This document shows positions 2,095 to 34,228 of a stretch of 64,000 bases of DNA, piece after piece. The translations under genes and the position numbers were made by a program. The stretch covers positions 736,001-800,000 of the forward strand of contig CAXXGI010000002.1 of the NCBI GenBank assembly GCA_963674695.2. Reading direction: 5' to 3'. Every line of letters starts with the position of its first letter. The first letter of the stretch is position 1. A model generated the notes under the pieces. The model was not told the origin of the DNA, ran no database searches, and saw only the letters and a list, made by a program, of their open reading frames with translations. The DNA is from a bacterium. GTDB lineage: Bacteria; UBA10199; 2-02-FULL-44-16; JAAZCA01.

Positions 2095-4602
2095 ATGACC
2101 GACAAATTGCCGAAGGATGAGAAGGGTGAAAAAATTGCGCCGGAGCGGAAGATCGATGGACCGGTAGTGGTGCCGCTGTTGCCGCTGCGCGACATCGTCG
2201 TCTTTCCGTATATGGTCGTGCCGCTCTTCGTCGGGCGCGAGAAGTCGATTGCCGCGCTCGAAGAGGCCATGAACAAGGAGAAGGATATCCTGCTCTCCGC
2301 ACAGATCAATCCGAAGACGAACGATCCGAAGGAAGACGATATCTACAAGGTCGGCACGCTCTCCTCCATCATCCAGCTGCTGCGTCTTCCGGATGGCACG
2401 GTGAAGGTGCTCGTCGAAGGGCGCAAGCGGGCCTGCATCAATCAGTATCTGTCCAACCCGAACTTCTTCCAGGTCGAGGCCGAGGCCTTCCAGGCGGAAG
2501 GGGAGGTGACCGTCGAGATCGAGGCGCTCATGCGCGGGGTGAAGAGCACCTTCGAACAGTACGTGAAGCTCAATAAGCGCATTCCGCCAGAGATGCTTGC
2601 GTCTGTCTCCACCATTGAGGATCCTTCGCGGCTTGCCGACACAATCGTTGCGCACCTGTCGCTCAAACTCCCCGACAAACAGAGCATCCTCGAAGTGATC
2701 TCGCCGGCTGACCGCCTGGAAAAGCTCCTCTCGCTCATGCAGTCCGAGATCGAGATTCTGCAGGTCGAGCGCCGCATTCGGTCGCGCGTGAAGAAGCAGA
2801 TGGAGAAGACGCAGCGCGAGTACTATCTCAACGAACAGATGCAGGCCATTCAGAAGGAGTTGGGTGAACGCGACGAGTTCAAGAGCGAGATTGCTGAACT
2901 GGAGGAGAAGGCAAAACAGAAGGAGCTCTCCACCGAAGCCAAGGATCGCGTCGCCAAGGAGATCAAGAAGCTCAAGATGATGAGCCCGATGTCCGCCGAG
3001 GCGACGGTGGTGCGCAACTATATCGATTGGGTGCTCTCGCTTCCCTGGGAGGAACTCACCAAGGATAAGCTCGATATTAAGGAAGCGGAGAAGATTCTCA
3101 ACGAGGATCACTATGGGTTGGAGCAGCCCAAGGAGCGCATCATCGAATATCTCGCGGTGCGCACGCTGGTGGAAAAGATGAAGGGCCCGATCCTCTGCTT
3201 TGTAGGACCTCCGGGGGTGGGAAAGACGTCGCTCGGTCGTTCCATCTCGCGCGCCATGGGCCGCAAGTTCATCCGACTCTCTTTGGGCGGCGTGCGCGAT
3301 GAGGCCGAAATTCGCGGGCACCGGCGTACCTACATCGGCGCAATGCCGGGCAAGGTGATTCAGAGCCTTAAAAAAGCCGGTTCCTGTAACCCCGTTTTTC
3401 TGCTCGACGAGGTCGATAAGATGAGCATGGACTTTCGCGGCGATCCCTCCGCGGCGCTCCTCGAGGTGCTCGATCCGGAACAGAACTCTACGTTCAACGA
3501 TCACTATCTTGATCTCGACTTTGATCTGTCGCACGTCATGTTCATCACCACGGCCAACACGTTGCCGTCCATCCCCATGCCGCTGCGGGATCGCATGGAG
3601 ATCATCCGTATTCCGGGCTATACCGAACTCGAAAAACTCAAGATCGCGCAGATCTATTTGGTGCGCAAACAGCGCGAAGCCAACGGCTTGACCGAGAAGA
3701 ATATCAGTTTCACGGAGAGCGCGCTCAAGTATGTCGTTCGTCACTACACGCGGGAGGCGGGCGTGCGTAACCTCGAGCGCGAGGTCGCCTCGATCTGCCG
3801 CAAGGTGGCGCGCGAGGTCGCACGGTCGGGCAATCGCGACAAACTCATCCGGATCACGCCCAAGAAGGTGCAGCAGTATCTGGGCGTTCCGAAGTTTCAT
3901 TTTGGTCTGGTCGAGGAGCACGACCAGATCGGCATGACCACGGGGCTGGCCTGGACGGAAGTCGGCGGGGAACTTTTGCAGACCGAGGTGAGCGTCATGC
4001 CCGGAAAGGGGAAACTCATCGTCACCGGAAAGTTGGGCGAGGTCATGCAGGAGTCGGCGCAGGCAGCGATGAGCTATGTCCGTTCACGCGCGGACGATCT
4101 GGGGCTCGGGCGCGACTTTTACGACAAGCTCGACATCCATATCCACCTCCCCGAGGGGGCGATCCCCAAGGACGGCCCGTCGGCCGGTATCACCATGGCC
4201 ACCGCCATCGCCTCCGCACTCCTCAAAATTCCGGTGCGCAAGGATGTCGCCATGACCGGCGAGATCACGCTGCGCGGGCGCGTATTGCCGATCGGCGGTT
4301 TGAAGGAAAAACTCCTGGCCGCGCATCGGGGTAAGATCAAGAAGGTGCTCGTGCCGAAGGAGAACAAGAGGGATTTGAAGGAGATTCCAAAGAAAATCCT
4401 CAAGGAACTCGATATCGTGCTGGTGGAACACATGGATGACGTTCTCGCCAATGCGTTGGCGATGGATGATCCGAAGCGGCTCTTTCGCCACAACAAAGAG
4501 CACAAGCTGATCGGCGGAGACGGAGAGGGTGCAAAGAAGGCGCGCGCCAAACCCGCCGCGCGCAGCCGTAGGCGTAACACCGAGCCGAGGGTGGTGGTCT
4601 GA
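2095..4602 (+). CDS. lon: Lon protease
   Basis: [11 protein letters not shown]-domain, GPPGVGKTS Walker A, PKDGPSAG catalytic Ser, IGGLKEK catalytic Lys. Confidence 0.98.
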
Positions 4603-4648
4603 AATAGGCCCGCCGGAGGCGGGTCAGACTGCTGACAAAGTCCCATGA

Positions 4649-4774
4649 TGTCATTCCGAGCGGACCCGGCATCGTATGATGCCGGGGAAGTCGAGGAATC
4701 TCATGAGATCCCTCCACTCCCTCGTGCAACTCGGTCGGTCGGGATGACAAACCCTGTTGTTGTCCGGAATGACA
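4649..4774. repeat. REP-like inverted doublet, family B
   Basis: TGTCATTCCGAGCG...GTCGAGGAATCTCATGAGATCCCTCC...CGGGATGACA; related to 8157-8252 (shared CCGGCATCRTAYGATGCCGG hairpin) and 38550-38639. Confidence 0.8.
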
Positions 4775-4789
4775 AAACCGCGTCTCTCG

Positions 4790-5848
4790 CTAGCGTTTAA
4801 TCTCCCATCCCTTCGCGTGTGCTTCGAGCAGGATCTTCTTACGAAACCCCCCACAGATGAATCGATGATAGGGCGTGTTCTTGCCGATGACCCTGCGCCA
4901 GGCGCTGTTCGAGGCCGCCGCGATTGAATCCATGACGAGCGTCTGTTCGTGCATCGCGCCGTCGACGGATACGCGCACCGGGATGTAGACGCGCGTGCCG
5001 AAGTTGAACATCAGCTCCGCGCTCTCTCGCGCGCGTCCCTCGACGTCGACGCATTCGCTGCGCAGCGTCCAGGCGCTCCAGCCGTTTCCCGTAAAACCCC
5101 GCATGATGAAGTCCATCTTGATACCAAACGGTTTGAAGACGTAGATGTGATGATAGGCATCCACGAAGTTTCGGCCCTTTTCATCGGTTCCTTCCCCGCA
5201 CCGAACCGGGGGGCTGACGTAATAGGTGTAGAGGGGGGCGGCCTCCAGCCGATCGAGGTAGGTCTGCGCCGATGCGGCCGGCAGATCGACGGCGAACATC
5301 GTGGCGGGCATGCCGCCCCCCCGGTCTAACTCGATCCAGACATCGTCGCAGGAGTCGATCGTGTTGAAGACCGGCGAGGTTTCCCAGTCGTAATGTTCGG
5401 GGCAGGCGCGCTCGAGTTTGAAACGCTTGGCGATGACGCCGAGTGGCAGCGCCTCCCTCGGCGTCATGCTCTCCCCCTTATGCTTGTTGCGCAGCTCGTT
5501 GTGATTTTCCCTCTTGGCGAAATTTGAGCTGGTCACCGCCGTCAGGATAGTGTCCTGCGTCAGCATGCCGTTGAGGAGGCTCCCAAAGATCCATTTGCGA
5601 TCGGCCGGAAAGTGTTCATAGCCCGTTCGAATGCTCGCGGCCAGGCGTGAGCGAGTGCGGTCGCGCACCGCCTTGAGCCCATCATCGTCGATGCTGCAGG
5701 TGAGCGCCCCATCGTCGCCCGTGGTGCAGCTGACATCGGCGGCCGATGGAAGGGCGATGCTCTTGATCTGTATCGGTTTCTCCTCAGGAGGGATCTGGGC
5801 GACGGCTGCGTCTCCCTGTGGACCCCCTGCAATAATCCGATCTGACAT
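4790..5848 (-). CDS. Hypothetical protein (C-terminal half weakly SRPBCC/START-like)
   Basis: Long ORF; start MSDRIIAGG follows a G-rich RBS-like site; fold assignment is a guess. Confidence 0.65.
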   Translation of the reverse strand: MSDRIIAGGPQGDAAVAQIPPEEKPIQIKSIALPSAADVSCTTGDDGALTCSIDDDGLKAVRDRTRSRLAASIRTGYEHFPADRKWIFGSLLNGMLTQDTILTAVTSSNFAKRENHNELRNKHKGESMTPREALPLGVIAKRFKLERACPEHYDWETSPVFNTIDSCDDVWIELDRGGGMPATMFAVDLPAASAQTYLDRLEAAPLYTYYVSPPVRCGEGTDEKGRNFVDAYHHIYVFKPFGIKMDFIMRGFTGNGWSAWTLRSECVDVEGRARESAELMFNFGTRVYIPVRVSVDGAMHEQTLVMDSIAAASNSAWRRVIGKNTPYHRFICGGFRKKILLEAHAKGWEIKR

Positions 5849-6042
5849 ATGTTTTTCCCCCACGTCGTTTTCCCGTTGATACAGAAAGGGCGGAAGTTGG
5901 TAAAGACGCGCCGCTTCCATGCGCGCGACGGACAGAGAGACTTGCCCGCAAACGGCGGGCAAGTCAATCTCTGCAGCCTATTGCACTGCGCAACGTCTTT
6001 GACGCGATGGCGGGGTTCACGTGGGGGGGAGGCGTCATTCTC

Positions 6043-6492
6043 TTACGTCAGAGGTGGACGGGCGAGGATGTTGCGGGCGAGGGCGAGAAACCGTTCGGCA
6101 GACGCAACGAGTTTTCGCGCGCCGTTCTCGGAAAAGTCGTCGCTGTAGTCTGCATTTTCGCGCATCTGTTTGGCCATCTGGAAGTCTTCGATCAGGCGAT
6201 GGAAGGGGTCGCCCTCTCCCGCATAGAGATGCGCGACGGCGATGCGCAGGCATCGGTGGTGATGTTCGCGAAATCCCTTGGCGAAGAGGAGCGCGCGCGC
6301 CGTGTGGAACATCGAATAGTAGGCCTGGATCGTCGACCACTTCCATCGCGCGCGGTCGATGCCCTCTCGCGCTTCGGTCAGATCGCTCTCGGCGGTTCCG
6401 AGTTCCTTCTGCACCAGCTTCGGTCCGTTTGCGAAGGCGGCGATATGATTCTTCTGCACGCATTCCTGAAACTGCTGTTCTATGTTTCCCAT
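6043..6492 (-). CDS. HEPN domain protein (toxin of HEPN/MNT pair)
   Basis: WSTIQAYYSMFHTARALL..H and RENADY are typical HEPN segments; overlaps the MNT gene. Confidence 0.85.
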   Translation of the reverse strand: MGNIEQQFQECVQKNHIAAFANGPKLVQKELGTAESDLTEAREGIDRARWKWSTIQAYYSMFHTARALLFAKGFREHHHRCLRIAVAHLYAGEGDPFHRLIEDFQMAKQMRENADYSDDFSENGARKLVASAERFLALARNILARPPLT

Positions 6493-7016
6493 AGGACGAT
6501 TCCCTTTCTGATCTCTTCCGCAAGAACGGGTTCTCCTTCATCGAGTGAGAGCATTTGTTCGGGCGTCTTGTAGAGCGTCTGAACCCGTTCGGCGATGGTG
6601 CTTTCGTCGACCATTCTTTGGACGGCACGGGTATCAGTGGTCACGACGATCAGGTCGAAGTCGCTTTTCGCATGACTCGTTCCCTGCGCGCGGCTGCCGA
6701 AGAGGACGATCTTCGATGCGATCGGTTTGATTCGATCAATGAGCGGTTCGAGGACAAGGAGGTTGGAGAGGATGCGAAAAGGAACGAGCCATGCATGCGT
6801 TCCATTGAGCCGGTTGAAGCAGCGACGCCCGCGATGGATCCGTTCGGTGACACCCATATCGGCGAGTTTTACCAGAGCCTGGTGAACGGCGGCACGCTTC
6901 ACCGCGACGGCGCGTTCGGTTACCTCTGCATCGGAGAGCTCTCCCCCGTCCTGGAGGAGGACATCCAAAACGCGTAGTAGAGGCGTGCTAAAGAGTTGAT
7001 ATTTAATGTCTTCCAT
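6480..7016 (-). CDS. HTH-fused minimal nucleotidyltransferase (MNT antitoxin)
   Basis: LFGSRAQGTSHAKSDFD matches GS-x10-DxD; N-terminal winged-HTH-like region; alternative start at 7034. Confidence 0.85.
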   Translation of the reverse strand: MEDIKYQLFSTPLLRVLDVLLQDGGELSDAEVTERAVAVKRAAVHQALVKLADMGVTERIHRGRRCFNRLNGTHAWLVPFRILSNLLVLEPLIDRIKPIASKIVLFGSRAQGTSHAKSDFDLIVVTTDTRAVQRMVDESTIAERVQTLYKTPEQMLSLDEGEPVLAEEIRKGIVLWET

Positions 7017-7027
7017 ATATACAGAAT

Positions 7028-7045
7028 TATCCATATATATGGATA
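7028..7045. promoter_or_regulatory. Perfect 18-bp palindrome, putative autoregulatory operator of MNT-HEPN
   Basis: TATCCATATATATGGATA directly upstream of the MNT start; a degenerate second site is at about 7012-7025. Confidence 0.6.
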
Positions 7046-7104
7046 TAAATGCAACCCGTTTTTTTGGGGGGAAGAGTCAATCTACGGGAAGGGAAGGGAG
7101 GCCC

Positions 7105-7452
7105 TCAACACGTTAGATGCAGCGCGCAGACGGTCTGCGCCCGCTCCTCGTCGGTGAGCGCATTGAATTCGCCCACGGCCTCAGGCGTCGGTGCGGCGAT
7201 GAGTTCGATGCCCAATGTTTCGCATGCGCCGCGCACCTCGGGCAGGACCTGGCACTTCCCGTTCGCTCCCGTACCGATGATGAGGCGTGCGGGCTTCGGG
7301 TCGAGAAAGACGGCCAGGTCGAAGAGCGAGACCTCGTGCCCCGACTTTCGCCACCAGCCGGGGCGAACGCCCGTGGGCGTGATGACGATGTCGTCCTCAT
7401 AGGTCTTCCCGTCGATCTCGATTTTTCCGAATTGATAGCTCGTGATCTGCAT
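7105..7452 (-). CDS. Mth938-like domain protein
   Basis: ITSYQFGKIEIDGKTYEDDIVI...WWRKSGH...LIIGTG...ALHLTC. Confidence 0.88.
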   Translation of the reverse strand: MQITSYQFGKIEIDGKTYEDDIVITPTGVRPGWWRKSGHEVSLFDLAVFLDPKPARLIIGTGANGKCQVLPEVRGACETLGIELIAAPTPEAVGEFNALTDEERAQTVCALHLTC

Positions 7453-7508
7453 GGAGGAGCATTTTACACCCCTTGAACCTCCCGTCAATCCATGCCAGGG
7501 TGGTGACC

Positions 7509-8057
7509 ATGATTCGCATTATTCGCACGCCGGTTCGCGTCCTCGTCTTCATCGTTTGTTTTGTCATCACCTACCTGGAGATGGCGGCCGACTGGATCAT
7601 CGGCGTGCGCGCTCGCACCGAGTATGTGCGCGAGGGGAAGTGCAAGCGCTGCGGGCGCTGTTGCCAGGCGCTCGCACTCATCATGCCCCGTGGCATGGCC
7701 CGACGCGATTGGCTCGTGCGTGCGGTGAGCTGGTGTCACGGCGTTGCGCTCAATTTTTACTATATCGCCGAGGAGGAGAACTGGCTGATCTACGGGTGCA
7801 ACTATTATAAAAACGGGTGCTCTATCTATCCCTTCCGCCACCGGATCTGTCGCAGCTTTCCGCGTCAGCAGCTCTACGGTCATCCCAACGTCCATCCCGA
7901 CTGCGGCTTCTCGTTTGTGCGACGCGATGTCTGGGAACGTCGTCGCGCGGAGAAGGAGGCGGGGAAGACCCCGTTCGATGCGGTCATCGCCCGCGAACGC
8001 GCCGCCCTCGCCGAGCGCCGCAGCCCCGCACCGCCGTCGTGCACGCACACGCCGTAA
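7509..8057 (+). CDS. YkgJ-family (CxxCxxCC) cysteine cluster protein with N-terminal hydrophobic segment
   Basis: CKRCGRCC...CSIYPFRHRICRSFP...CGF. Confidence 0.8.
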   Translation: MIRIIRTPVRVLVFIVCFVITYLEMAADWIIGVRARTEYVREGKCKRCGRCCQALALIMPRGMARRDWLVRAVSWCHGVALNFYYIAEEENWLIYGCNYYKNGCSIYPFRHRICRSFPRQQLYGHPNVHPDCGFSFVRRDVWERRRAEKEAGKTPFDAVIARERAALAERRSPAPPSCTHTP

Positions 8058-8156
8058 GGGGGTGTGGTTTGATATCCGGGGGTGGCGGTGAAAGGGCGTT
8101 GTGGTCATTATAATTACCAATTGGTAATATAAGAGGGTGATGACAAACCTGGGTGT

Positions 8157-8252
8157 TGTCATCCTGAGCGAGGCCGGAACGGACGAGTCGAAGGATCTCA
8201 TGAGACTCCTCGACTCCCCCGGCATCATACGATGCCGGGTCCGCTCGGAATG
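8157..8252. repeat. REP-like doublet, family B
   Basis: Inverted relative of 4649-4749. Confidence 0.8.
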
Positions 8253-8429
8253 GGTGCGATCGATGCTGCCATCGGGGTGAAGGTTGTTCGCGGCGCCCTC
8301 CCTCCTGCACACATACGCCATGAGGTTTGTTTTCACGTGTTTTGCCTCAAACGCGAACCGCCCGCGTCCGGAAAGGAGCGGGCGGTTATAGGATTCAACT
8401 CGTTGCGGGGGATCGTACTCCTGTCGCGA

Positions 8430-9413
8430 TCATCCCCCTTTGTGGTATGCAGTCGGGAGGGCCGCCGCGTTGACGAAGTCGCGTTCGTAAAAACCGTCGA
8501 GATGCCTTTGCAGTCCGTCCGCCAACAACCCCGATGTGATCATCGCGTGTGCGGCGTCGGTGGAGACGTTGTTCGGAAACGCATCGGCGAAGCCGCGCAG
8601 GAGTGTGAGGTGTGCCGAAGCGCTGGTGTCGATCGCCGCGAGCGCTTTCTTGCGATTGGTGGGAAGATTGAGCCAGTTTGTGACCTTTCGGCTGCTGGCA
8701 TTCGTGAGATAGGTAGTGGATGCCGACATTATAGCTAATCCGAACATGAGGCCACCGGCAACAGCACTGGGAATGCTACCATTATTCACTGTGTTTTGTA
8801 TGATGTTTTGTATGCCAAAGATTCCAACTAAAATGGAGGGCCAATACGCAGCCTGTTTTTTGGCCAACCTCTGTACTTCTGAGAGCGCATACAAATTTTC
8901 ATAGATGTTGATCCCCATCGCGTGCGCGAAGAGTGCGCCCGACTCGGGCGTGATGACGCCGCGATCGCTCGCGCGTTTGACCATCGGACCGTTAAGCGCC
9001 TCGTGGAGGAGGATGCCCTGTCCGGCACCATCGCGTCCGCCAAGGCGCTCGGCGTGCGTCGGAAAGAGCGGAAGCCCCGCTGCGTGACTACTGACCTTGA
9101 GCGCCAGCGCGTCGAGTTTTTCGCTCGCTGCCGGTCTGAGCTTCGAGATGATCGCGGCGGCGCCGTCGGCGTCCGTCGGCGAGACCCTTCCCTCCGCGAC
9201 GAATGCGATCTCGTTGTTCTGGAGCGCCACGTTCATCAGGATGGCGGCATCGTCCACTTGCGGATGGAGCAAGAACGAATCCGTCGTCTCCAGGAGATTC
9301 GCCATCGGGCTCTCCTCCAGAAACGGTTCAGTGTAGTCGGTCGGCATCGTGCTGATGTCCCGCCAGCCGAAGGTCGTCGTTGCCGGATTCATCGCTGTGT
9401 TGAACGTCATCAT
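8430..9413 (-). CDS. Orphan protein with two hydrophobic helices in a low-GC internal segment
   Basis: GGAGG RBS before MMTFNTAMNPATTT; hydrophobic YWPSILVGIFGI and AVAGGLMFGLAIM. Confidence 0.7.
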   Translation of the reverse strand: MMTFNTAMNPATTTFGWRDISTMPTDYTEPFLEESPMANLLETTDSFLLHPQVDDAAILMNVALQNNEIAFVAEGRVSPTDADGAAAIISKLRPAASEKLDALALKVSSHAAGLPLFPTHAERLGGRDGAGQGILLHEALNGPMVKRASDRGVITPESGALFAHAMGINIYENLYALSEVQRLAKKQAAYWPSILVGIFGIQNIIQNTVNNGSIPSAVAGGLMFGLAIMSASTTYLTNASSRKVTNWLNLPTNRKKALAAIDTSASAHLTLLRGFADAFPNNVSTDAAHAMITSGLLADGLQRHLDGFYERDFVNAAALPTAYHKGG

Positions 9414-9460
9414 ATCCTCCTTGCGTCGCTTCTCCCTCGAAGCGCGTCCTTGTACCCCCT

Positions 9461-9487
9461 GTATCGCACCGGGGCAAGAAAAGTTGC
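9461..9487 (-). promoter_or_regulatory. Sigma28-like promoter GCAACTTT-N11-TGCGATAC
   Basis: Same spacing as the FliA consensus TAAAGTTT-N11-GCCGATAA; recurs before other orphans. Confidence 0.5.
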
Positions 9488-9607
9488 GCACAATTTCTAT
9501 TTTGCGAAGAGGGAAGGGTATGCACATCAGAACTGTCGTCGAGGAGGGAAATGCGAGATGGGATACAGACGCCCTTGAAAAAGAACAGAGGACATGAAAG
9601 AAAGTGC

Positions 9608-9637
9608 GCAACTTTTCTGCGGGGGGGGGGGCGATAA
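9608..9637 (+). promoter_or_regulatory. Sigma28-like promoter GCAACTTT-N14-GGCGATAA with a G11 tract
   Basis: Inverted partner of 9461-9487; G run at 9621-9631. Confidence 0.45.
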
Positions 9638-9685
9638 TCACATGTCCGTGATGGCAAACGTAAACGTGAGTTGAAAGGAGATCAT

Positions 9686-10471
9686 ATGGGTATCACGACG
9701 AATCCACGGTGGAGCAAGCTGATGGGATACTGCTCGCAGATGCTTTTCGAATCGGTGAAGACGAAGGACCCGGAGGAGAAGGCGAATCTGGACTTCGCCT
9801 ACACGAAATGCACCGAGGAACTTGCATCGGCCCAGAATGAATCGATTCGTGTCTGCGGAGCGGACGATGCCTGCGAGAACGACTACATGGAGCACCGCAT
9901 GTCGGCGTACATGCGCATGTGCGACCGGGGCAACTTGCGCCGCTGCTATGGTGCGATGTTTCGGGAGAACGAATGGGGGATGTCCTGTATGGATCGGGGT
10001 AGCCTCGTCGATGATCTCTATACGGAGCTTCAGAAACGCGTCGTGAGCGGGCAGAACGTCATCGACGATCATTGGTCGATCGTCGGCGAGAATTACAGCC
10101 CTTTCGGTAACTATGAAGATGCAGAGGGGAACATTGTTTTGCAGTATACTTCCGATAAAGAAGAAGGATACGTCATCGAGGTCGCCAAGGGCGTTCCCAT
10201 CTGGAGAAGGGAAGGGGACAACGCGCATTGGATCGGTCATGTTGACGATCGAAACTCGGGCGTGTATCGAGTGTCCGTCAGGAGGGAGAATGGCGAAGAA
10301 TTGTATCACGCATCCGACGACGGCTGTGGTGAAGCATTCGGTTGCAACTACTGGATCGCAGAAATAACCGATTCGAACAGGCTCGGGAAATCCATTCTGC
10401 AGGCTGGGCTTGATCTCCTGTCGGCCGGAACGATTCCGGTCGGTGATTATCGGATTGGCGGATCGCCATAA
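9686..10471 (+). CDS. Cys-rich orphan protein
   Basis: AAAGGAG RBS; 261-aa ORF; no recognisable family. Confidence 0.7.
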   Translation: MGITTNPRWSKLMGYCSQMLFESVKTKDPEEKANLDFAYTKCTEELASAQNESIRVCGADDACENDYMEHRMSAYMRMCDRGNLRRCYGAMFRENEWGMSCMDRGSLVDDLYTELQKRVVSGQNVIDDHWSIVGENYSPFGNYEDAEGNIVLQYTSDKEEGYVIEVAKGVPIWRREGDNAHWIGHVDDRNSGVYRVSVRRENGEELYHASDDGCGEAFGCNYWIAEITDSNRLGKSILQAGLDLLSAGTIPVGDYRIGGSP

Positions 10472-10635
10472 GCGACCTGGAAGTTTCTTGTCTTTTTCCG
10501 CGACTGATGATCATTAGGACGCGGAGCGATGATCGCACACTTTCCTCAAGGGCATCGATTTTTTCCGCGCCTCCCGCCTTGCCATCCGACCTCTCCAATG
10601 CTATGCCCGCGCGACATTTCAAGGAGACACACACT

Positions 10636-12219
10636 ATGGCTCAAGCACTGCTCTCGAAACTTCTGGAAACCCAGCCCGATCGGGTCTTTTGCAACCTTTC
10701 CCCGGCCAAGCTCGTGGAGGTGGCCCTGCAAACCGGCGAGGGGACGTTGGCGGCCAATGGGGCGCTCGTGACCCGTACCGGCGAGCGCAGCGGGCGCTCT
10801 CCCAAAGATCGCTTTATCGTCGAGGACAAGTGGTCGAAGAAGAAGGTCGCCTGGGGGGATGTGAACCGGCCCGTCACGCAGGAGGTCTTCGACAACCTCC
10901 TGCAGGTCGCCGTCGATTATCTCGCCGAGCGCGATCGCTACGTCTTCGAGGGATTCGTGGGCGCCGATCCCAAATACCGCATGCCGATCCGCGTGATCGC
11001 CGAGAAGGCGTGGCACGCGCTCTTCGCGACGACGCTCTTCATTCGCCCCGAGGCCTCGGAGCTCAAGGGGTTCTCTCCCGAGTTCACCGTCATCGACGCG
11101 ATGGACCTCAAAATCGATCCGATGAAGTATGGCATTCGTTCCGGCACCTTCGTCGGCGTCTCCTTCGAGAAGCGCATCGTTCTCATCATCGCCAGCGGCT
11201 ACGGCGGCGAGATCAAGAAGAGCATCTTCTCGGTCATGAACGGAATGCTCCCCGAGCGCGACGTCTTTCCGATGCACTGCTCGGCAAACATCGGTCGCGA
11301 CGACGATGTCGCCCTCTTCTTCGGACTCTCCGGGACTGGCAAGACGACGCTCTCGGCCGATCCGACCCGGCGTCTCATCGGCGACGACGAGCACGGCTGG
11401 TCCGATCGCGGCATCTTCAACTTCGAGGGAGGCTGTTACGCCAAGGTCATTCGCCTCTCGCAGGAGGCGGAACCGCAGATCTACGACGCCATCCGCTTCG
11501 GTTCGCTCCTGGAGAACGTCATCGTCGATTCCACGACGCGCGCCATCGACTACGACTCCGATGCCATTACGGAGAACACGCGCGCGACCTATCCGGTCGA
11601 GCACATTCCGGCGGCGGTCATCCCCAGCGTTGGCGGTCATCCGAAGCATATCTTCTTCCTGACCTGCGATGCCTTCGGCGTGCTGCCGCCGATCGCCAAG
11701 CTCGATCCGGCGATGGCGATGTATCACTTCCTCTCCGGCTATACGGCCAAGCTCGCGGGAACGGAGGTCGGAATCGACGAGCCGCAGGCGACGTTTTCCA
11801 CCTGCTTCGGCGCGCCGTTCATGCCGCTCGATCCCACGGTCTATGCCAAGCTCCTGGGCGAGCGCATGGCCCGGCACAAGACGCAGGTTTGGCTCGTCAA
11901 CAGCGGCTGGAGTGGTGGATCCCACGGCGAGGGGAGCCGCATGAAGATCTCCATCACGCGCGCGTTGCTTTCCGCCGCACTCGAGGGGAAGCTCGATGCC
12001 GTCGGTTTCTCCCCCGATCCCATCTTCCACGTTCTCGTGCCCGATTCCTGCCCGGGCGTGCCCGCGGAGGTGCTCACCCCCCGCAACACCTGGCGCGACA
12101 AGGCGGCCTACGATCGCAAGGCCGCGGAGCTTGCTGAGCGTTTCCAGAAGAACTTCGCGCAGTACGCCGATCACGCGGGGGATAACGTTTGCGCCGCCGG
12201 TCCGAAGATCGATCGTTGA
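10636..12219 (+). CDS. pckA: Phosphoenolpyruvate carboxykinase (ATP)
   Basis: GRSPKDRFIV, YGGEIKKSIFS, MHCSAN, GLSGTGKTTLS, IGDDEHGW, NFEGGCYAK, ENTRATYP. Confidence 0.97.
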   Translation: MAQALLSKLLETQPDRVFCNLSPAKLVEVALQTGEGTLAANGALVTRTGERSGRSPKDRFIVEDKWSKKKVAWGDVNRPVTQEVFDNLLQVAVDYLAERDRYVFEGFVGADPKYRMPIRVIAEKAWHALFATTLFIRPEASELKGFSPEFTVIDAMDLKIDPMKYGIRSGTFVGVSFEKRIVLIIASGYGGEIKKSIFSVMNGMLPERDVFPMHCSANIGRDDDVALFFGLSGTGKTTLSADPTRRLIGDDEHGWSDRGIFNFEGGCYAKVIRLSQEAEPQIYDAIRFGSLLENVIVDSTTRAIDYDSDAITENTRATYPVEHIPAAVIPSVGGHPKHIFFLTCDAFGVLPPIAKLDPAMAMYHFLSGYTAKLAGTEVGIDEPQATFSTCFGAPFMPLDPTVYAKLLGERMARHKTQVWLVNSGWSGGSHGEGSRMKISITRALLSAALEGKLDAVGFSPDPIFHVLVPDSCPGVPAEVLTPRNTWRDKAAYDRKAAELAERFQKNFAQYADHAGDNVCAAGPKIDR

Positions 12220-12263
12220 CGTCCACGGGCCCTGGCGGGTACAGTAGGGCGCACGGGGGGACG

Positions 12264-12884
12264 ATGCGCCGGATACAGAACGAATACGGCTATTTCTGGC
12301 TGAAACGCCTGCACGACGTCTCCGGCGTGTTGCTGGCTGGGGCGTTCATCCTGCTCTTTCTGCTCCCCTGGTCATCGGCATTCGGCGGTTCGGCTGCCTT
12401 CGATCGCACGATGATGGCCCTGCATCGGCTTCCGCTCTATGATCTCGTCACCACGGTTGTCGTCGGCGTCCTCATCCTTTTTCACATCGCTGTCGGCGTT
12501 CTCATCCTCTACGAATCACGCGCTAACATCATCGCCTATCCCTTCTCAGGGAATGCGATGTATCTCATCCGCCGCGCGACGGGGCTTTTGCTCATCCCCT
12601 TCGTCCTCTATCAGCTCTACGTGACGCGGCTGGGTTCGGCGGCCTCCGGGGCGACGCTCACCTTTCGCACCCTCCAGCAGATCTTTGCGCCGCTCTGGAT
12701 GAAGGTGATCGCGGTCGGCGGCATGATCTGCTTGGCGCTCTATTGCGCGGCGGGTCTGCACGCCATGCTCTCTCGCTGGGGGGCAACCGCTTCACGGCGT
12801 TCGCGCGAGGCCAGCGCCATCGTCGCGGCGATCATCGGTATTGTGCTGGGCGGATGGGGCGTGGCCATCCTCCTCGCGTTCTAG
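12264..12884 (+). CDS. sdhC: Succinate dehydrogenase cytochrome b558-like subunit (Bacillus-type, heme ligands degenerate)
   Basis: YFWLKRLHDVSG N-terminus, about five TM helices, upstream of sdhA/sdhB homologs. Confidence 0.75.
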   Translation: MRRIQNEYGYFWLKRLHDVSGVLLAGAFILLFLLPWSSAFGGSAAFDRTMMALHRLPLYDLVTTVVVGVLILFHIAVGVLILYESRANIIAYPFSGNAMYLIRRATGLLLIPFVLYQLYVTRLGSAASGATLTFRTLQQIFAPLWMKVIAVGGMICLALYCAAGLHAMLSRWGATASRRSREASAIVAAIIGIVLGGWGVAILLAF

Positions 12885-12891
12885 GAGACAC

Positions 12892-14634
12892 ATGCGGGAC
12901 AAGCGTGCAGAGATTCTCATCATCGGTGCGGGGGCTGCGGGCTCCATGGCGGCGCTCGCTGCCATCGAGCAGGGCGCGCACGTCACGATGCTCTCGCGCG
13001 ATCACCCCTATCGCGCCACGACCGCGACGCGCCATTCCGGCATCGCGGCGGCGCTCGACTTGCACGGCGAGGGAGACAGCCCTGCGCTGCATGCCCAGGA
13101 GACGATCGTCGGCGGCGACTTCCTGGCCGACCAGTCGATGGTCGCGCGCATGACCGATGCCGCGCCGGCCATCGCGGGGCTGATGCAGCGCATGGGGATC
13201 GTCTTCGATCGTACCGCCGAGGGAGGCATATCTCTCCTGGCGGGAACCGGGTTTTCGAAGGCGCGCACGCTCCGGGCCGGGGTGACGACAGGGCAGGAGG
13301 TGGCGCGCGTGCTGGCGGGGCAGCTTCTGCGTGCACGGCATGAGGAGCGGCTGGCCTGGTACTCCGGTTGGGAATTGCTCTCCCTGCTCAAGGACGAGTC
13401 GGGACTCGTGCGCGGCGTTGTGGCCGCGAACCGGAGAAGCCTGGAAGTGCGCCTCTTTTCCGGCGATGCGGTGGTGCTGGCTGCCGGCGGTTTTGCCGGG
13501 CTCTTCGCTGATTCCAGTGCTCCCCTCGATGCGGATGGCGCCGCGCTCGCGACCTGTTTTCAACAGGGGGCCCATCTCTCCAATCCGGAGTTCGTCCAGG
13601 TCCATCCCTTTACGATTTTGACCCGAGGCAAGCGTCGTCCGGTTCCGGAATATCTCTTGGCCGAGGGGACGCGCGTCTTCTGCTGGCGCGAAGGGCGCCC
13701 CTGGTACGTTCTGGAAGAACGCTGTGCACCGCTTGGCGCACGCGTGCCGCACGATGTGGCCCTGCGCGCTCTGCGCGAGGCCGCCCGCGAGGTCGGGGAT
13801 GAGCGCGCGACGATCGCCCTGGACTGCTCTGCACTCGATCCGATGGATCTCGAGCAATGGCTCGGCTCACCCCAGCCGGAGGTCGTATCGGATGAAGAAG
13901 TGGTTTCGGCCGAAGCCCCGCTGGGAGTGGAGCCGGCGATCGTTCGAACGCTCGGGGGACTCACCGTCGATGCCGACCATGCGACGACGCTCTCCGGTCT
14001 CTTCGCTGCCGGCGATTGCACCGCGGCCTATCATGGCGCCTGCGCGCTCCCCGCAAACGAAATCCTCGCCGCCCTGCAGGGGGGACTCGTCGCCGGTCGT
14101 TCCGCGGCGGCGTATGCCGATCGAAGCGGCGCGGGTCTGGGCGACATTCCGCAATCGGTGCGCGATGCCGCGCTTGCACGCGAGGAGGACCGCCACGCAC
14201 AGATCTATGCACGCGAGGGCGATGAAAACATTCGGGGCATTCGCCGTGATCTCCATGAAGCGATGCGCGATGCGTTTCAGGAGGGCATCGACGATGCGGC
14301 CTTGGTGAAGACCGAGGAGCGCCTGGAGATTTTGCGCCAGCGCCTGGATCACGCGGCGCTTGCCGATACGGCGCACTGGGCCAATCCCGAACTCTTCGCT
14401 GCGCGACATCTCGAGGCCGCCTTCGATCTGGCCCGAGCGACGATCGCCGCTGCCCGCGCACGTCAGGAGAGCCGCGGCGTCTTCTTCAAACCCGCCCACC
14501 CGAAACGCGACGATGCGAACTGGTTGGTGACGACGAAGGTCTCACTGGCAAACGGCCAGGTGCAGTTGGATCATTCCGAGCGCATCGACACCTCGATTAT
14601 CGAGCCGACGGTGCGAACGTATGAAGGGCGTTAA
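12892..14634 (+). CDS. sdhA: Succinate dehydrogenase flavoprotein-like protein (catalytically degenerate)
   Basis: IIGAGAAG, GGDFLADQ, EFVQVHP, GLFAAGDC, RQESRG..RDDANWL, C-terminal RTY. Confidence 0.8.
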   Translation: MRDKRAEILIIGAGAAGSMAALAAIEQGAHVTMLSRDHPYRATTATRHSGIAAALDLHGEGDSPALHAQETIVGGDFLADQSMVARMTDAAPAIAGLMQRMGIVFDRTAEGGISLLAGTGFSKARTLRAGVTTGQEVARVLAGQLLRARHEERLAWYSGWELLSLLKDESGLVRGVVAANRRSLEVRLFSGDAVVLAAGGFAGLFADSSAPLDADGAALATCFQQGAHLSNPEFVQVHPFTILTRGKRRPVPEYLLAEGTRVFCWREGRPWYVLEERCAPLGARVPHDVALRALREAAREVGDERATIALDCSALDPMDLEQWLGSPQPEVVSDEEVVSAEAPLGVEPAIVRTLGGLTVDADHATTLSGLFAAGDCTAAYHGACALPANEILAALQGGLVAGRSAAAYADRSGAGLGDIPQSVRDAALAREEDRHAQIYAREGDENIRGIRRDLHEAMRDAFQEGIDDAALVKTEERLEILRQRLDHAALADTAHWANPELFAARHLEAAFDLARATIAAARARQESRGVFFKPAHPKRDDANWLVTTKVSLANGQVQLDHSERIDTSIIEPTVRTYEGR

Positions 14635-14636
14635 CG

Positions 14637-15377
14637 ATGGAAACGATTCTCCTCAAAGTGAAGCGACAGGATGACCCGAGCGATCTCCCCTACTGGGAGG
14701 AGTTCGAGGTAGAGCTGACGCCAGAGATGACGGTGCTCGCGGCATTGCAGGCGGTGGGGCGCGCGCCGGAGACGCTCGAAGGCCATCGCACCGCGCCCAT
14801 CGTCTTTGATGCAAACTGCGGCGAGGGTATCTGCGGCGCCTGTGCCATGCGCATCAACGGCAAGGTGCGCCTGGCCTGCCACACGCTCGTGGCCGAGCTG
14901 GACGAGCCCATCGTCTGCGAGCCGATGGAGAGTTTTCCGGTCGTGCGCGATCTGATCGTCGATCGCGACCGGCTCTTCGATGCGCTCGAGCGCGGGCGTT
15001 GCTGGATCACGCTCGATGGTCTGGAGGGACGCTCGGTGCCGGATTTGTGGAAGACGCCCGCCGAGGGGCTCGATGCCTTTCTCGGGTGTTGTCTCTGTGG
15101 GGCCTGTGCGGATGCCTGTCCGCAGGTGAATGAACGCACGGCGTTCATGGGCGCAGCGCTCTTTGCTCACGTTTGGCTTTTCAACCTCCATTCGCATGGA
15201 ACGCGGGAACGCGATCTGCGTCTGGGCGCTGTTGCTGCGCGCGGGGGTGTGGCCGACTGCGCGGGGACACGCAACTGCGATCTCGTCTGCCCGCAGGGGA
15301 TCGACCTGGCCGGCATCATGTCCCGGACGGGTGCGGCGGTGATGGGCGCTGCTTTTAGGTCATTTTTCCGGGGTTAG
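14637..15377 (+). CDS. sdhB: Succinate dehydrogenase iron-sulfur subunit
   Basis: CGEGICGAC..RLAC (2Fe-2S), FPVVRDLIVDR, CCLCGACADACP, CAGTRNCDLVCP. Confidence 0.88.
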   Translation: METILLKVKRQDDPSDLPYWEEFEVELTPEMTVLAALQAVGRAPETLEGHRTAPIVFDANCGEGICGACAMRINGKVRLACHTLVAELDEPIVCEPMESFPVVRDLIVDRDRLFDALERGRCWITLDGLEGRSVPDLWKTPAEGLDAFLGCCLCGACADACPQVNERTAFMGAALFAHVWLFNLHSHGTRERDLRLGAVAARGGVADCAGTRNCDLVCPQGIDLAGIMSRTGAAVMGAAFRSFFRG

Positions 15378-15582: not shown

Positions 15583-16158
15583 ATGAAAAAGGGACTTTTG
15601 TTTGTGGTCGTCGCGCTCATCGCATCGATGGCGGTCTTTGGATGTGAGAAGGCGCAGATGAAGGAGACGATCGAAGGGGCCGTAGGCGATGCGATGGATA
15701 CGGCTCCCGAGATGGGCGTCGAATCCCCCGCGCCGAATCTGCCGGCGACGGTTGCGACGATCGTCCTGGACGCAAATGGAAAGAAGAACTGCTTCGACGT
15801 CTGGGTCGCCACGACCGATGCGGAGCGCATGACGGGGCTCATGAACCGCGAGTCGTTGCCGGAAGAGGGCGGCATGTGGTTCGTCATGTCTGAGGGGCAG
15901 TGCGATAACCCGTCCGGCGAGAACTGCAATTTCTGGATGAAGGACACGGAGATCCCGCTCGACGTCATCTTCGTCAGCAAGGAGATGAAGGTCGCCAGCA
16001 TCTTCCCGGACGCCGTCCCTGGATCGCTCGATATGATTGCCTCGGATGCGCCCTATCAGTATGTCCTGGAGATCAACGGCGGCATGGCTGCTGAGATGGG
16101 TCTCAAGGCAGGCGATGCCGTTACCAAACAGATCGGGCATGACGGTTGCAGCGAATGA
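15583..16158 (+). CDS. DUF192-family lipoprotein
   Basis: Lipobox VFGC; ERMTGLMNRESLPEEGGMWF..FWMKDTEIPLDVIF..YVLEINGG. Confidence 0.88.
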   Translation: MKKGLLFVVVALIASMAVFGCEKAQMKETIEGAVGDAMDTAPEMGVESPAPNLPATVATIVLDANGKKNCFDVWVATTDAERMTGLMNRESLPEEGGMWFVMSEGQCDNPSGENCNFWMKDTEIPLDVIFVSKEMKVASIFPDAVPGSLDMIASDAPYQYVLEINGGMAAEMGLKAGDAVTKQIGHDGCSE

Positions 16159-24442: not shown

Positions 24443-25792
24443 ATGGCTGAACAGAATCTGCTCATCGTCAACGCCTGTCTCATCACCGGTCGCGGGCCGG
24501 TCTTTCCCGACGGATTCGTCCACATCAGCGGTTCGCGCATCGCAGCCCTCGGGCCGATGTCGCGCTGTCCGAAACATGGCGCCATGCAGGTCATCGATGC
24601 GCATGACCGCTTTGTCCTCCCCGGTTTCATCAATCCCCACATGCATCTCTATGGGGCGCTCGCCTGCGGGATGGAGCTGCCGCGCATGCGCCACTTTGGA
24701 AAGGTCCTCAAGGATCTCTGGTGGCGGCTCGATGCCGCACTCGAGCTCGAGGACATCTTCGTGAGCGCGATGCTCGGCGGTGTCGCCGCCATTCGCGCGG
24801 GCGTGACCACCCTCATCGATCACCATGCCAGCTACGGCGCGATCAGCGGCTCGCTGGGGGCCATCTCCGAGGCGTTGGGCGAGCTGGGGCTTCGCGCCAA
24901 CCTCTGTTTCGAGATCTCCGATCGTGCCGGGAAGGGAAGTCGCGACGAGGCGCTCGCCGAAACCGGGCTGTGGCTCGAGAGCGTGCGCAACTGGCTTGCC
25001 GAGGAGCCGCAGTTTCTCCAGCGCGGCATGGTGGGGCTGCACGCCTCGATGACCGTTTCCGATGCCACCTGTGACGCTGCACGCGAACTCATGGATCTCT
25101 TCGATGTCGGCGCACACGTCCATGTCGCCGAGGCGATGGAGGATGTCGCGGCGACGAAGAAGAAGTATCGCCAGCGCCCCGTTGCGCGCCTCTTCAAACA
25201 GGGGCTTCTGCGCCCGGAATCGATCGCCGTCCACTGCGTGCATGTGGATGCAAACGATATTCGCCTGCTCGCCAAGAGTGCGGCGACGGTGGTGCACAAC
25301 CCGCTCTCCAATCTGAATAACGCCGTGGGTGTGGCGCCAGTCCCAGAGATGATGCAGCGGAAGATTCCCATCGTCATCGGTACCGATGGCATGAGTGCCG
25401 GCGTGCAGGACGATCTGCGGGTGGCTTCGGTCTTGCATCGCCCGGGGGCAAAGGATGCCCAGGCCGGTTGGAGCGAGGTTGGCCACGCGCTCTTCGAAAA
25501 CGCGCCCTCGCTCGTCTCGCGCCAGTTCGGTTTCGAGGTGGGAACGCTGGGAAAGAATGCCGCGGCCGATCTCATCATTGCCGATGCTCGGCCCGCAACC
25601 CCCGTGACGAAGGCAAATGTCTTGGCGCACGTTCTCTTCCGTGTGATGACCGCCCCCGTGCGCACAACGATCGTCGCGGGCAGGGTGCTCATGCAGGATT
25701 TTGAAATCCCGGGTCTGGACGAAGAGCGCCTCGCGCGCGACGCACAGAGATGTGCGAAGAAACTGTGGAAACGGATGAAGATGGTTCGATAG
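24443..25792 (+). CDS. ssnA: SsnA-like amidohydrolase
   Basis: PGFINPHMHLYGALACG, WWRLD, GVTTLIDHHAS, GLHASMT, HVHVAE, HNPLSNLNNAVG, GTDG. Confidence 0.75.
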   Translation: MAEQNLLIVNACLITGRGPVFPDGFVHISGSRIAALGPMSRCPKHGAMQVIDAHDRFVLPGFINPHMHLYGALACGMELPRMRHFGKVLKDLWWRLDAALELEDIFVSAMLGGVAAIRAGVTTLIDHHASYGAISGSLGAISEALGELGLRANLCFEISDRAGKGSRDEALAETGLWLESVRNWLAEEPQFLQRGMVGLHASMTVSDATCDAARELMDLFDVGAHVHVAEAMEDVAATKKKYRQRPVARLFKQGLLRPESIAVHCVHVDANDIRLLAKSAATVVHNPLSNLNNAVGVAPVPEMMQRKIPIVIGTDGMSAGVQDDLRVASVLHRPGAKDAQAGWSEVGHALFENAPSLVSRQFGFEVGTLGKNAAADLIIADARPATPVTKANVLAHVLFRVMTAPVRTTIVAGRVLMQDFEIPGLDEERLARDAQRCAKKLWKRMKMVR

Positions 25793-25964
25793 TTCGATAG
25801 TTCGATAGTTCGATAGTTCGATAGTTCGATAGTTCGATAGTTCGATAGTTCGATAGTTCGATAGTTCGATAGTTCGATAGTTCGATAGTTCGATAGTTCG
25901 ATAGTTCGATAGTTCGATAGTTCGATAGTTCGATAGTTCGATAGTTCGATAGTTCGATAGTTCG
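25784..25964. repeat. Perfect 8-mer tandem repeat (GTTCGATA)x22 plus a partial unit
   Basis: Counted directly; supplies the TAG stop of the ssnA-like gene; short opposite arm accgacgaaccgacg at about 26005-26019. Confidence 0.97.
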
Positions 25965-26028
25965 GAATAATTTTGACACTTTATCATGGCATTGAAACGC
26001 TGTAACCGACGAACCGACGGGAGGCGTT

Positions 26029-27411
26029 ATGAACAAAGAATACATCTGGGGACCAACGTTTGAGGAGATGCTGCATCCCGAGAAGATTCCCGCCGATTTG
26101 CGCAAGAAGGCACTGGGCGTCCTCGAGGGGGATCCGCTCTCGCCGCTCAACCTCTTCAACATCACCTGGCGCGACGGGGGCAATCGCATCCGTCACGTCG
26201 TGCTGCCCGAGGCGCTCACCGGCGTTCCCACGCCGATCGTGCTCCTCATCGGAACAGGCTTCCCGACCGGTTCGCACAAGGTCGGCGCCACCTATTCCTG
26301 CACGATCGAGAAACAGGTGCGTGATGAAATCGAACCCGGAAAGCATCGCCTCGTCTGGCCCTCCACCGGCAACTACGGCGTGGGCGGGGCCTATGTGGGC
26401 GAGCGGATGAACTATGACTCCTTCGTGATCCTCCCCGAGGAGATGAGTCAGGAACGCTTCGACAAGATCACCTGGTACGGTGCGAAGTATGCCAAGACGC
26501 CAGGCTGCGAGTCGAACGTGAAGGAGATCTACGACAAGGCCTGGGAGCTCTCGCGCGAGCCGAATACGATCATCGTCAACCAGTTTTCAGAATTCGCCAA
26601 CTATCGTTTCCATTATTACGTCACGGGGACGACGCTCCTCGAATGCTTCGACGAGCTCAAGGCCAAGGGTGTGGGCACGCGCTTCGCTGGGATCACCTCG
26701 GCGATGGGTTCGTCCGGCACGATCGCCTGCGCCGAGCGCGTGAAAGAGGTGCATCCCGATTGCCTCACCATCGGCCTCGAACCGATCCAGTGTCCCACGC
26801 TCTATTCCAATGGCTTCGGTGGCCACGACATCCAGGGGATCGGCGACAAACACGTCACCTTCATCCATAATACCGACGCGATGGACGCGATCATCTGTAT
26901 CGATGAATGGGATTCGAAGAAGGGGATGCAGCTCATTCACGAGGAAGTTGGTCGGCGCGCACTCGTCGACGCCGGCGTGGACGCGAATCTTCTCGAGTGC
27001 ATCAAGGACGTCTTCGGCATCTCCACCATCTGCAACATCCTGGGCGCGATCAAGACGGCCAAACACTATCGGCTGGGAAAAGATGATGTCCTCTTCACGA
27101 TCGCCACGGATGGAATCGATCGCTACTACAGCGTGATGGAACAGATGGATGCGAAGTGTGGCAAGATGGATGCCGAGGAGGCGCGTCGTCGGTACGAATC
27201 GATCTTCCTACGTCAGCCCATCGATTATATCCGCGAAGGGACCGAGCACGCCAAGGACTGTTGGGCCAATCTGAAATACTATACCTGGGTCGAGCAGCAG
27301 GGGAAGGCGGTCGAGGAACTGCGCGCACAGCGCTCACCCGAATACTGGCAGGCCCAGCGCGAACAGCTCGCCGAGACCGATCGCCTCATCCGCGATAAGC
27401 GGGGTTGGTGA
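26029..27411 (+). CDS. PLP-dependent fold-type II enzyme (cysteine synthase/ammonia-lyase-like)
   Basis: PTGSHKVGA (PLP Lys), WPSTGNYG, MGSSGT phosphate loop, HDIQGIGD. Confidence 0.85.
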   Translation: MNKEYIWGPTFEEMLHPEKIPADLRKKALGVLEGDPLSPLNLFNITWRDGGNRIRHVVLPEALTGVPTPIVLLIGTGFPTGSHKVGATYSCTIEKQVRDEIEPGKHRLVWPSTGNYGVGGAYVGERMNYDSFVILPEEMSQERFDKITWYGAKYAKTPGCESNVKEIYDKAWELSREPNTIIVNQFSEFANYRFHYYVTGTTLLECFDELKAKGVGTRFAGITSAMGSSGTIACAERVKEVHPDCLTIGLEPIQCPTLYSNGFGGHDIQGIGDKHVTFIHNTDAMDAIICIDEWDSKKGMQLIHEEVGRRALVDAGVDANLLECIKDVFGISTICNILGAIKTAKHYRLGKDDVLFTIATDGIDRYYSVMEQMDAKCGKMDAEEARRRYESIFLRQPIDYIREGTEHAKDCWANLKYYTWVEQQGKAVEELRAQRSPEYWQAQREQLAETDRLIRDKRGW

Positions 27412-27414
27412 AGC

Positions 27415-28845: not shown

Positions 28846-28861
28846 CGCAGGTTAGACTCCC

Positions 28862-28888
28862 TGATCGGTGAAGACGGTCCCTCTTTAC
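28862..28888 (-). promoter_or_regulatory. Sigma28-like promoter GTAAAGAG-N11-ACCGATCA
   Basis: Canonical spacing, directly upstream of the TPR orphan. Confidence 0.4.
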
Positions 28889-28911
28889 GGGCAGTCACAC
28901 GCTGCTTGTGT

Positions 28912-31841: not shown

Positions 31842-31859
31842 ATGAGGAAGAAGCATATG

Positions 31860-31938: not shown

Positions 31939-31951
31939 AAGGAGATCATCT

Positions 31952-34223: not shown

Positions 34224-34228
34224 CAAAG

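Follow-up and report, generated by a model that had tools for sequence, protein, structure and literature searches.

The three-gene sdhCAB-like operon at positions 12264-15377 of the window (the whole 64,000-nt stretch of bacterial DNA analyzed here, G000:C2:736001-800000) encodes a relative of complex II, the membrane-bound succinate dehydrogenase (SDH) or fumarate reductase (FRD), that probably does a redox job other than succinate/fumarate chemistry. We place about half of our confidence in the reading that its product is a maintained derivative of type-B complex II, that is, a membrane redox complex with flavin adenine dinucleotide (FAD) and iron-sulfur (Fe-S) clusters that is linked to menaquinone and reacts with a partner that is not a dicarboxylate. 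The first-pass annotation of this DNA had described three intact open reading frames in operon order, and this is what we find in the source genome G000 (100% complete, 3.03 Mb, 3 contigs). All three genes lie on the + strand in the order C-A-B without interruption: an sdhC-like gene (12264-12884) encoding, from its ATG, a 206-aa membrane anchor with five helices and a type-B fold; an sdhA-like gene (12892-14634) encoding a 580-aa flavoprotein with a four-domain fold, its ATG at 12892 verified by translation; and an sdhB-like gene (14637-15377) encoding a 246-aa subunit with Cys ligands for [2Fe-2S], [4Fe-4S] and [3Fe-4S] clusters. The intergenic gaps are 7 nt (sdhC-sdhA) and 2 nt (sdhA-sdhB), and the corresponding junctions abut or overlap in relatives; it is this operon organization that suggests contact among the three products.

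The flavoprotein has lost most of the residues on which complex II chemistry depends. Its motifs were placed by phmmer against all solved structure chains and by MAFFT alignment with canonical type-B SdhA; the two placements agree, and the MAFFT alignment contributes in addition the VPHD and PEYLLAEGT motifs given below. E. coli, Bacillus subtilis and Shewanella residue numbers serve below as labels only. The covalent-FAD motif RSH reads R41-A42-T43, V-P-R-D reads VPHD (His287), H-Y-x-M-G-G reads VRTLGG (Val351, Arg352), and HGANRLG reads HGACALP (C384/A385). In Q-x-H-P-T, which reads QVHPF, His238 is kept and the Thr is replaced by Phe240; in S-E-x-x-R-G-E-G-G, which reads PEYLLAEGT, Glu253 is kept and the Arg is replaced by Leu256. 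Thus, of the residues of the dicarboxylate and proton-delivery sites of E. coli SdhA (H242, T244, E255, R286, H354 and R399), the equivalents of all but His242 and Glu255 have been replaced. Since every altered motif position is invariant in 20/20 canonical comparison sequences, these losses are far beyond chance. The dinucleotide motif GAGAAG (G12-x-G14-x-x-G17) is intact, and AAGG and GLFAAGD are also kept. The first-pass annotation had listed the changes to RAT, PHD, RTLGG and HGACALP and had named GxGxxG, QxHP and the Glu as all that was left; the alignments bear this out, and proper alignment restored neither the catalytic His and Arg residues nor the heme His residues of the anchor described below.

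Profile and structure comparisons place the protein in the family, with curated models scoring below their cut-offs. Pfam FAD_binding_2 (162 bits) and Succ_DH_flav_C (75.7 bits) both match, while the best NCBIfam model, NF006392 (Bacillus type), scores 428.6, half of its cut-off of 855, and TIGR01811 scores 333.2 against 541.35. Models for other branches of the fold fall short as well (type-D FrdA, NF006686, 194.7 against 854; NadB, TIGR00551, 187.5 against 452.75). The AlphaFold2 (AF2) model is nonetheless confident in all four domains, with a mean predicted local distance difference test score (pLDDT) of 87.9 and a predicted template-modeling score (pTM) of 0.91, and only residues 326-339 are poor. 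Foldseek aligned this model to 9a55_A with a template-modeling score (TM) of 0.93 at 33% identity, and to E. coli FrdA with a TM of 0.87. The top match, 9a55_A, is itself an integrative model titled 'SDHA-ATPF' of a type-B SdhA contacting an ATP synthase subunit, a title which hints that type-B flavoproteins may have protein partners outside complex II.

The Fe-S subunit, by contrast with the flavoprotein, is fully equipped. As the first-pass annotation had noted, all three cysteine sets are retained (11/11 cluster-ligand Cys), and the protein passes the curated cut-off of NF006391 (246 vs 244) and matches Fer2_3 at 106.2 bits. Nearly all SdhB proteins linked to degenerate SdhA likewise keep all 11 Fe-S Cys.

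The anchor keeps the fold of a one-subunit type-B membrane domain and has lost most of its heme ligands. Hydropathy and the AF2 model (pLDDT 86.7, pTM 0.80) indicate five long helices, and the fold best matches one-subunit complex II anchors (9lay_C, TM 0.76; Wolinella FrdC, TM 0.62-0.69), albeit with weak Foldseek E-values of 1.7e-3 or worse. By sequence, the anchor matches nothing in the PDB up to E = 10; it matches Pfam Sdh_cyt at 31.6 bits and scores 34.7 against TIGR02046, about a third of the cut-off of 96. The four heme-ligand His columns, invariant in 14/14 canonical relatives, read F32, H74, Q117 and Y160, so that one of four is kept; the first-pass reading of F, Q and Y with only the H70 equivalent retained therefore holds, the B. 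subtilis numbers being that reader's and the alignment having been made with canonical relatives rather than with B. subtilis SdhC. Across relatives, heme-ligand loss tracks the state of the flavoprotein: 14/15 anchors of degenerate or intermediate operons lack at least one of the His residues, whereas 14/14 anchors of canonical operons keep all four, these counts coming from kin genomes and hence not being independent. The replacements are recurrent rather than random, in that the fourth His (in TM4) has become Tyr in 9/15 non-canonical anchors and the first has become Phe in most of f1, the uncultured bacterial family (13 species genomes) to which G000 belongs. In the G000 anchor, His166 sits six residues past Tyr160 and may be a substitute heme ligand. 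HemB was not found in G000.

Given that the catalytic and flavinylation residues and three of the four heme ligands are gone, the operon is not that of a normal succinate:quinone oxidoreductase, as the first-pass annotation had also concluded. The loss of heme ligands alone does not make such a complex inert. Variants of E. coli SDH that lack heme b have been reported. Heme-free forms of complex II are known (PMC3290573, PMC12508127), and neither assembly nor electron transfer to quinone depends on heme in such forms.

Comparison with known systems sets the operon apart from each of them. The type-B succinate:quinone and quinol:fumarate oxidoreductases (SQR/QFR; type B as defined in an excerpt of the Nitrospina paper, PMC3578206), among them Bacillus subtilis SdhCAB, Wolinella succinogenes FrdCAB and Chloroflexus aurantiacus SDH (9lay), share with it the C-A-B order, a single five-helix anchor, the four-domain flavoprotein and a three-cluster Fe-S subunit of the kind recognized by NF006391. 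Unlike them, the complex described here lacks the covalent-FAD His and the equivalents of Arg286, His354, Arg399 and Thr244, has one of four heme His, scores far below the cut-offs of the SdhA and SdhC models, and has sucCD neither adjacent to its operon nor elsewhere in the genome. The heme-free anchors of E. coli FrdCD (type D) and of yeast SDH, the latter described as 'heme-deficient type-D' in the excerpt of PMC12508127, consist of two small subunits and belong to complexes in which the dicarboxylate site is complete and the FAD is covalently bound, in contrast with the single 206-aa anchor here. NadB and the soluble flavocytochrome c3 fumarate reductase resemble the sdhA-like protein in having the same flavoprotein fold without a flavinylated His, but they have no SdhB or SdhC partners, whereas the sdhA-like gene lies between sdhC and sdhB. 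In both of these soluble enzymes, the Arg and His residues that bind substrate are retained. Among CC-licensed PMC papers and bioRxiv preprints, none was found to describe a type-B complex II without a dicarboxylate site.

The operon is the sole complex-II-like locus of G000. Succ_DH_flav_C matches only two genes in this genome, the sdhA-like gene and a 530-aa gene on contig C3 (G000:C3:588718-590307) that encodes the L-aspartate oxidase NadB (NF006567, 778.3, above the cut-off of 629); FAD_binding_2 has no further full-length match, and the only other Fer2_3 match is a xanthine-dehydrogenase-type 2Fe-2S subunit, so that there is no second SdhA/FrdA or SdhB. The second flavoprotein was likewise NadB in 8/8 further f1 members tested. 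One suggestion of the first-pass annotation, that G000 has a canonical SDH at another locus and that the operon is its paralog, is not supported by this search or by gene order, which marks the operon as a descendant of canonical sdhCAB and not as an extra copy. In canonical relatives, sdhCAB lies in a tricarboxylic acid (TCA) cycle cluster with the order icd-mdh-sdhC-sdhA-sdhB-sucC-sucD-ndk; on the basis of gene order, the sdhCAB-like operon descends from the TCA-cluster sdhCAB of sister lineages and was kept after f1 lost SucCD and citrate synthase.

The operon is also under purifying selection. A degenerate sdhA-like gene is carried by 11/13 f1 genomes (match at E <= 1e-40, 36-47% identity to that of G000), with a short form lacking the capping domain in G009 and no sdhCAB-like operon found in G002 (99% complete); every f1 copy recovered is degenerate, as are, counting intermediates, 18/32 of the SdhA homologues recovered from relatives. 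Frames are intact in eight f1 genomes (G000, G001, G003, G004, G005, G007, G010 and G012), whose copies share only 40-47% identity with one another. The ratio of nonsynonymous to synonymous divergence (dN/dS, by NG86) for the sdhA-like gene is 0.13-0.25, with dN 0.24 and dS 1.82 for the G001/G010 pair and dN 0.29 and dS 1.16 for G007/G012, figures that are rough since dS is saturated (>1). For the latter pair, the values for sdhB (dN 0.24, dS 1.09), sdhC (dN 0.18, dS 1.15) and the flanking pckA (dN 0.12, dS 1.05) are close to these and likewise far from 1. Simple decay, in which the operon would be a relic heading for loss after the TCA cycle was dismantled, could draw on the disappearance of SucCD and citrate synthase from the family, on the long branches of SdhB proteins linked to degenerate SdhA, and on the complete loss of the operon in G002. 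The intact frames and low dN/dS, the tight or overlapping gene junctions, an SdhB above its curated cut-off and confidently folded AF2 models speak against it, and decay, which we regard as highly improbable, is already largely refuted. The first-pass annotation had proposed dN/dS near 1 and frameshifts in orthologs as the sign of decay, and the values and frames observed side with its view that the operon is not simply decaying.

The former active site is re-patterned rather than randomized. In a comparison of a core clade of 17 degenerate sequences with 20 canonical ones (background hydrophobic fraction, 0.45), position 240 (the Thr244 equivalent) is occupied by F, Y, L or C, and position 256, where canonical E-x-x-R has its Arg, by L, F, I or M (Leu in 12/17), so that both are hydrophobic in 17/17; position 385 (the Arg399 equivalent) is a small hydrophobic residue in 14/17. 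Charged residues recur close by: position 48, which adjoins the flavin and corresponds to SdhA Gln50 or FrdA Glu49, is Arg or His in 14/16, position 49 (Gly in canonical sequences) is Asp or Glu in 11/17, and position 390 (the Ser after G-x-N) is Glu in 14/17. Through these replacements, a cationic dicarboxylate pocket has become an apolar one with a new basic/acidic pair near the flavin. Of the columns that are invariant in the canonical set, 84 retain their conservation in the degenerate clade, whereas 62, all known catalytic positions among them, do not; 13 positions are newly conserved, with no obvious catalytic residue among them. The data fit a rebuilt apolar site and a plug equally.

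The same positions bear on whether a residual fumarate reductase persists, in which menaquinol would reduce fumarate or a close analogue through non-covalent FAD at an unorthodox site, serving as the anaerobic sink of a branch from phosphoenolpyruvate (PEP) through oxaloacetate and aspartate to fumarate. Non-covalent FAD is compatible with fumarate reduction. G000 keeps His238 and Glu253 and has a His at the Arg286 position; it also encodes an aspartase/fumarase-family lyase, NadB and MenA, and has no other menaquinol oxidizer candidate among those searched. In addition, pckA, encoding an ATP-dependent PEP carboxykinase, lies directly upstream of the operon on the same strand in six genomes (G000, G005, G006, G007, G008 and G012). 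However, the equivalents of the carboxylate-binding Arg399 and His354 are Ala385 and Val351, the Thr244 and E-x-x-R positions have turned hydrophobic throughout the core clade, His238 is kept in just 6/17 of that clade, and the curated SdhA/FrdA models score at about half of their cut-offs. We consider residual fumarate reduction improbable.

Stripped flavoproteins extend well beyond f1. An exhaustive search of representatives returned 337 proteins at E <= 1e-30, of which the best 148 (50%-identity clusters, leaving out the query and its known relative) were classified by four core residues, namely the covalent His, Arg286, His354 and Arg399. At least 94 clusters are stripped, in that 94 of the best 148 representatives keep at most one of the four; 60 of the 148 keep none, and 8 keep all four. 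Among the degenerate representatives, GLFAAG, HGA..GN and ESRG are conserved, and of the 89 that have the N-terminus, 80 retain an unbroken GxGxx[GA]; these motif counts come from a fast MAFFT alignment in which distant members may be misaligned. Searching contigs with the sdhA-like protein gave only 30-47-residue matches to the N-terminal Rossmann region, in Nocardia and other Actinomycetota, and searching a protein-cluster atlas matched only generic SDH/FAD-binding clusters.

A further group has lost a whole domain. Among the best 148 representatives, 19 measure 395-520 aa and show a gap across the Arg286 region, and in G009, G021, G026 and G036 the match to the sdhA-like protein splits in two, at about residues 3-237 and 348-573; because the matches split in this way, the capping domain (query residues about 237-347) must have been excised. 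These capless proteins of ~470 aa, with ~9 linking residues at the junction, are encoded at L067:9101-10534, L068:3889-5304, L043 (G009) and L044 (G021), flanked by sdhC-like and sdhB-like genes. Intermediate forms occur in G013 (L065:8214-9950) and G030 (L070:7772-9532), which lack the covalent His (RSPS, RSGS) and have Cys in place of Arg399, with HP[T/S], VPRD and HYxMGG kept; these are possible snapshots of a path from canonical to stripped. As for the number of origins, f1 sequences form one group in the SdhB tree (SH-aLRT, the Shimodaira-Hasegawa-like approximate likelihood ratio test, 89) and 15/15 degenerate-linked rows are found to the same side of a branch (SH-aLRT 87), on long branches, a topology compatible with either a single or multiple origins of the stripped type.

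In three genomes, a second, bona fide complex II flavoprotein adjoins the stripped or intermediate operon (G029, 946.6 vs 819; G036, 1153.6 vs 866; G030, 958.6 vs 819). The second complexes of G029 and G036, each comprising a flavoprotein of 609 or 637 aa and an Fe-S subunit, are found at L066 (G029:C20) 4493-12612 and L067 (G036:C10) 3213-11302, with icd, and in G029 also mdh, in the few kb between them and the stripped sdhCAB. The carriage of a second complex II in G029, G036 and G030 indicates that the stripped complex is kept even where another enzyme covers succinate chemistry.

The metabolic setting in f1 is one in which the TCA cycle is dismantled. No SucC/SucD pair was found in any of the 13 f1 genomes, as compared with 25/28 non-f1 relatives that have it. 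Instead, 11/13 f1 genomes encode a single 600-660-aa protein with Ligase_CoA and Citrate_synt domains, of the ATP-citrate-lyase (ACL) alpha type, some copies being cut by contig ends. In G000, this protein is 639 aa long (G000:C1:120660-122576, - strand), with a SucD-like N-terminal part and a C-terminal part like citryl-CoA lyase or citrate synthase, and it is the only Ligase_CoA or Citrate_synt match in the genome; neither a separate citrate synthase nor a class I fumarase was found there. The class II lyase of G000 scores as a member of the aspartase subfamily (543.8 vs 510, with fumC at 539, below 664.75). MqnA was not found in G000. SdhE/Sdh5 was found in 0/5 genomes searched, a negative that carries no weight, since the control matched only 2/14 reference genomes.

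In the mechanism that we favor, the complex would have abandoned succinate/fumarate chemistry together with covalent flavinylation and, in the case of G000, most or all heme. The sdhA-like protein would bind FAD non-covalently, and electrons would pass from or to the flavin through the three Fe-S clusters to or from the menaquinone pool at the anchor. The flavin would face the re-patterned, largely apolar pocket and react there with a partner other than a C4-dicarboxylate. Two of the functions suggested in the first-pass annotation, action on another substrate and service as a heme-less electron wire, both stay live under this scheme. More tentatively still, the operon may represent a class of respiratory-type enzyme not described before, in which a complex II chassis with a heme-poor, menaquinone-facing anchor and an apolar or, in capless forms, open flavin pocket moves electrons between the quinone pool and a hydrophobic enoate, a lipid-like molecule or a redox protein; such a class would be widespread in uncultured bacteria, with at least 94 50%-identity clusters.

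Several observations weigh against the reading of a menaquinone-linked redox complex with a new partner. The former catalytic positions are highly variable across the wider family, which argues against a single shared new chemistry, and GxGxxG is broken in 9/89 degenerate representatives, or about 1 in 10. The apolar replacements at the old site may do no more than fill it. No conserved partner gene was found beside the operon. Menaquinone use rests on one MenA match above its cut-off in G000 (110.8 vs 102.15), and other routes that feed or drain the quinone pool are not apparent: no true NuoH (complex I), cytochrome bd or molybdopterin oxidoreductase was found in G000, nor a class-2 dihydroorotate dehydrogenase above the cut-off. 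The saturation of dS blunts the estimates of selection, and the lack of the operon in G002 makes it dispensable in at least one lineage.

Some of these observations would be expected if the flavoprotein were catalytically idle, acting as a cap or assembly partner that stabilizes SdhB-SdhC or as a moonlighting scaffold, with redox activity confined to the Fe-S subunit and anchor or absent altogether. An analogy is offered by mitochondrial complex III, whose core proteins are peptidase-like and inactive. Such a structural role would account for the wide variation at catalytic positions, for 13 newly conserved positions of which none is obviously catalytic, for hydrophobic residues at positions 240 and 256 that could plug the pocket, for deletion of the capping domain in 19/148 representatives and in four genomes, for the broken dinucleotide motifs, and for a lineage that manages without the operon. 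On the other hand, FAD motifs are kept in 80/89 representatives, most capless forms included, charged residues at positions 48, 49 and 390 near the flavin are conserved, and the full set of 11 SdhB cluster ligands is hard to explain without electron transfer through a chain that needs an entry or exit point. We judge an idle flavoprotein to be rather unlikely, though the likeliest of the alternatives to the redox complex with a non-dicarboxylate partner.

Immediately around the operon, f1 genomes share the arrangement pckA-sdhCAB-DUF192, with pckA adjacent in the 6 genomes named above and DUF192 in 10. In the window, pckA occupies 10507-12219 (+ strand; PEPCK_ATP, 713.5 bits), and a weak promoter-like site, TTGACG-18-TACAGT (12216..12245, +), lies between its stop codon and the sdhC-like start; this is a consensus match only, and the region holds two such sites where shuffled sequence would lead one to expect 0.9. 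The DUF192 protein (15583-16158, +), which carries a lipoprotein-type signal (…AVFGC), lies 3' of sdhB. It was rejected as a partner, being 205 nt away and a predicted lipoprotein, and because the farther neighbors SurA-like, RuvX and YceG are equally syntenic we treat it as plain synteny.

Two other loci in the window were recorded in passing. A HEPN-domain protein and a nucleotidyltransferase (Polbeta/NTP_transf_2) form an adjacent pair at 6043-7034 (- strand), the usual layout of HEPN/MNT toxin-antitoxin systems. At 24443-38538 (+), two amidohydrolases, an M20 peptidase, a pyridoxal phosphate (PLP) enzyme and a PreT/PreA-like pair (Fer4_20 with Pyr_redox_2, and DHO_dh with Fer4_21) are clustered, an arrangement suggestive of reductive pyrimidine or hydantoin-type degradation.

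Genome-based metabolic models treat complex II as a dependable marker of the TCA cycle and of succinate/fumarate-linked respiration. Because complex II domains, and in part complex II models, match the stripped proteins even though the residues that bind succinate and fumarate are gone, these proteins (94 of the best 148 representatives) would be mislabeled as complex II. The persistence of an Fe-S wire and an FAD fold under purifying selection points to a chassis that has been re-used. If its partner were found, anaerobic quinone-linked electron transport would gain a new point at which electrons enter or leave, and the natural series of canonical, intermediate, stripped and capless forms lends itself to work on functional change and loss in a respiratory enzyme.

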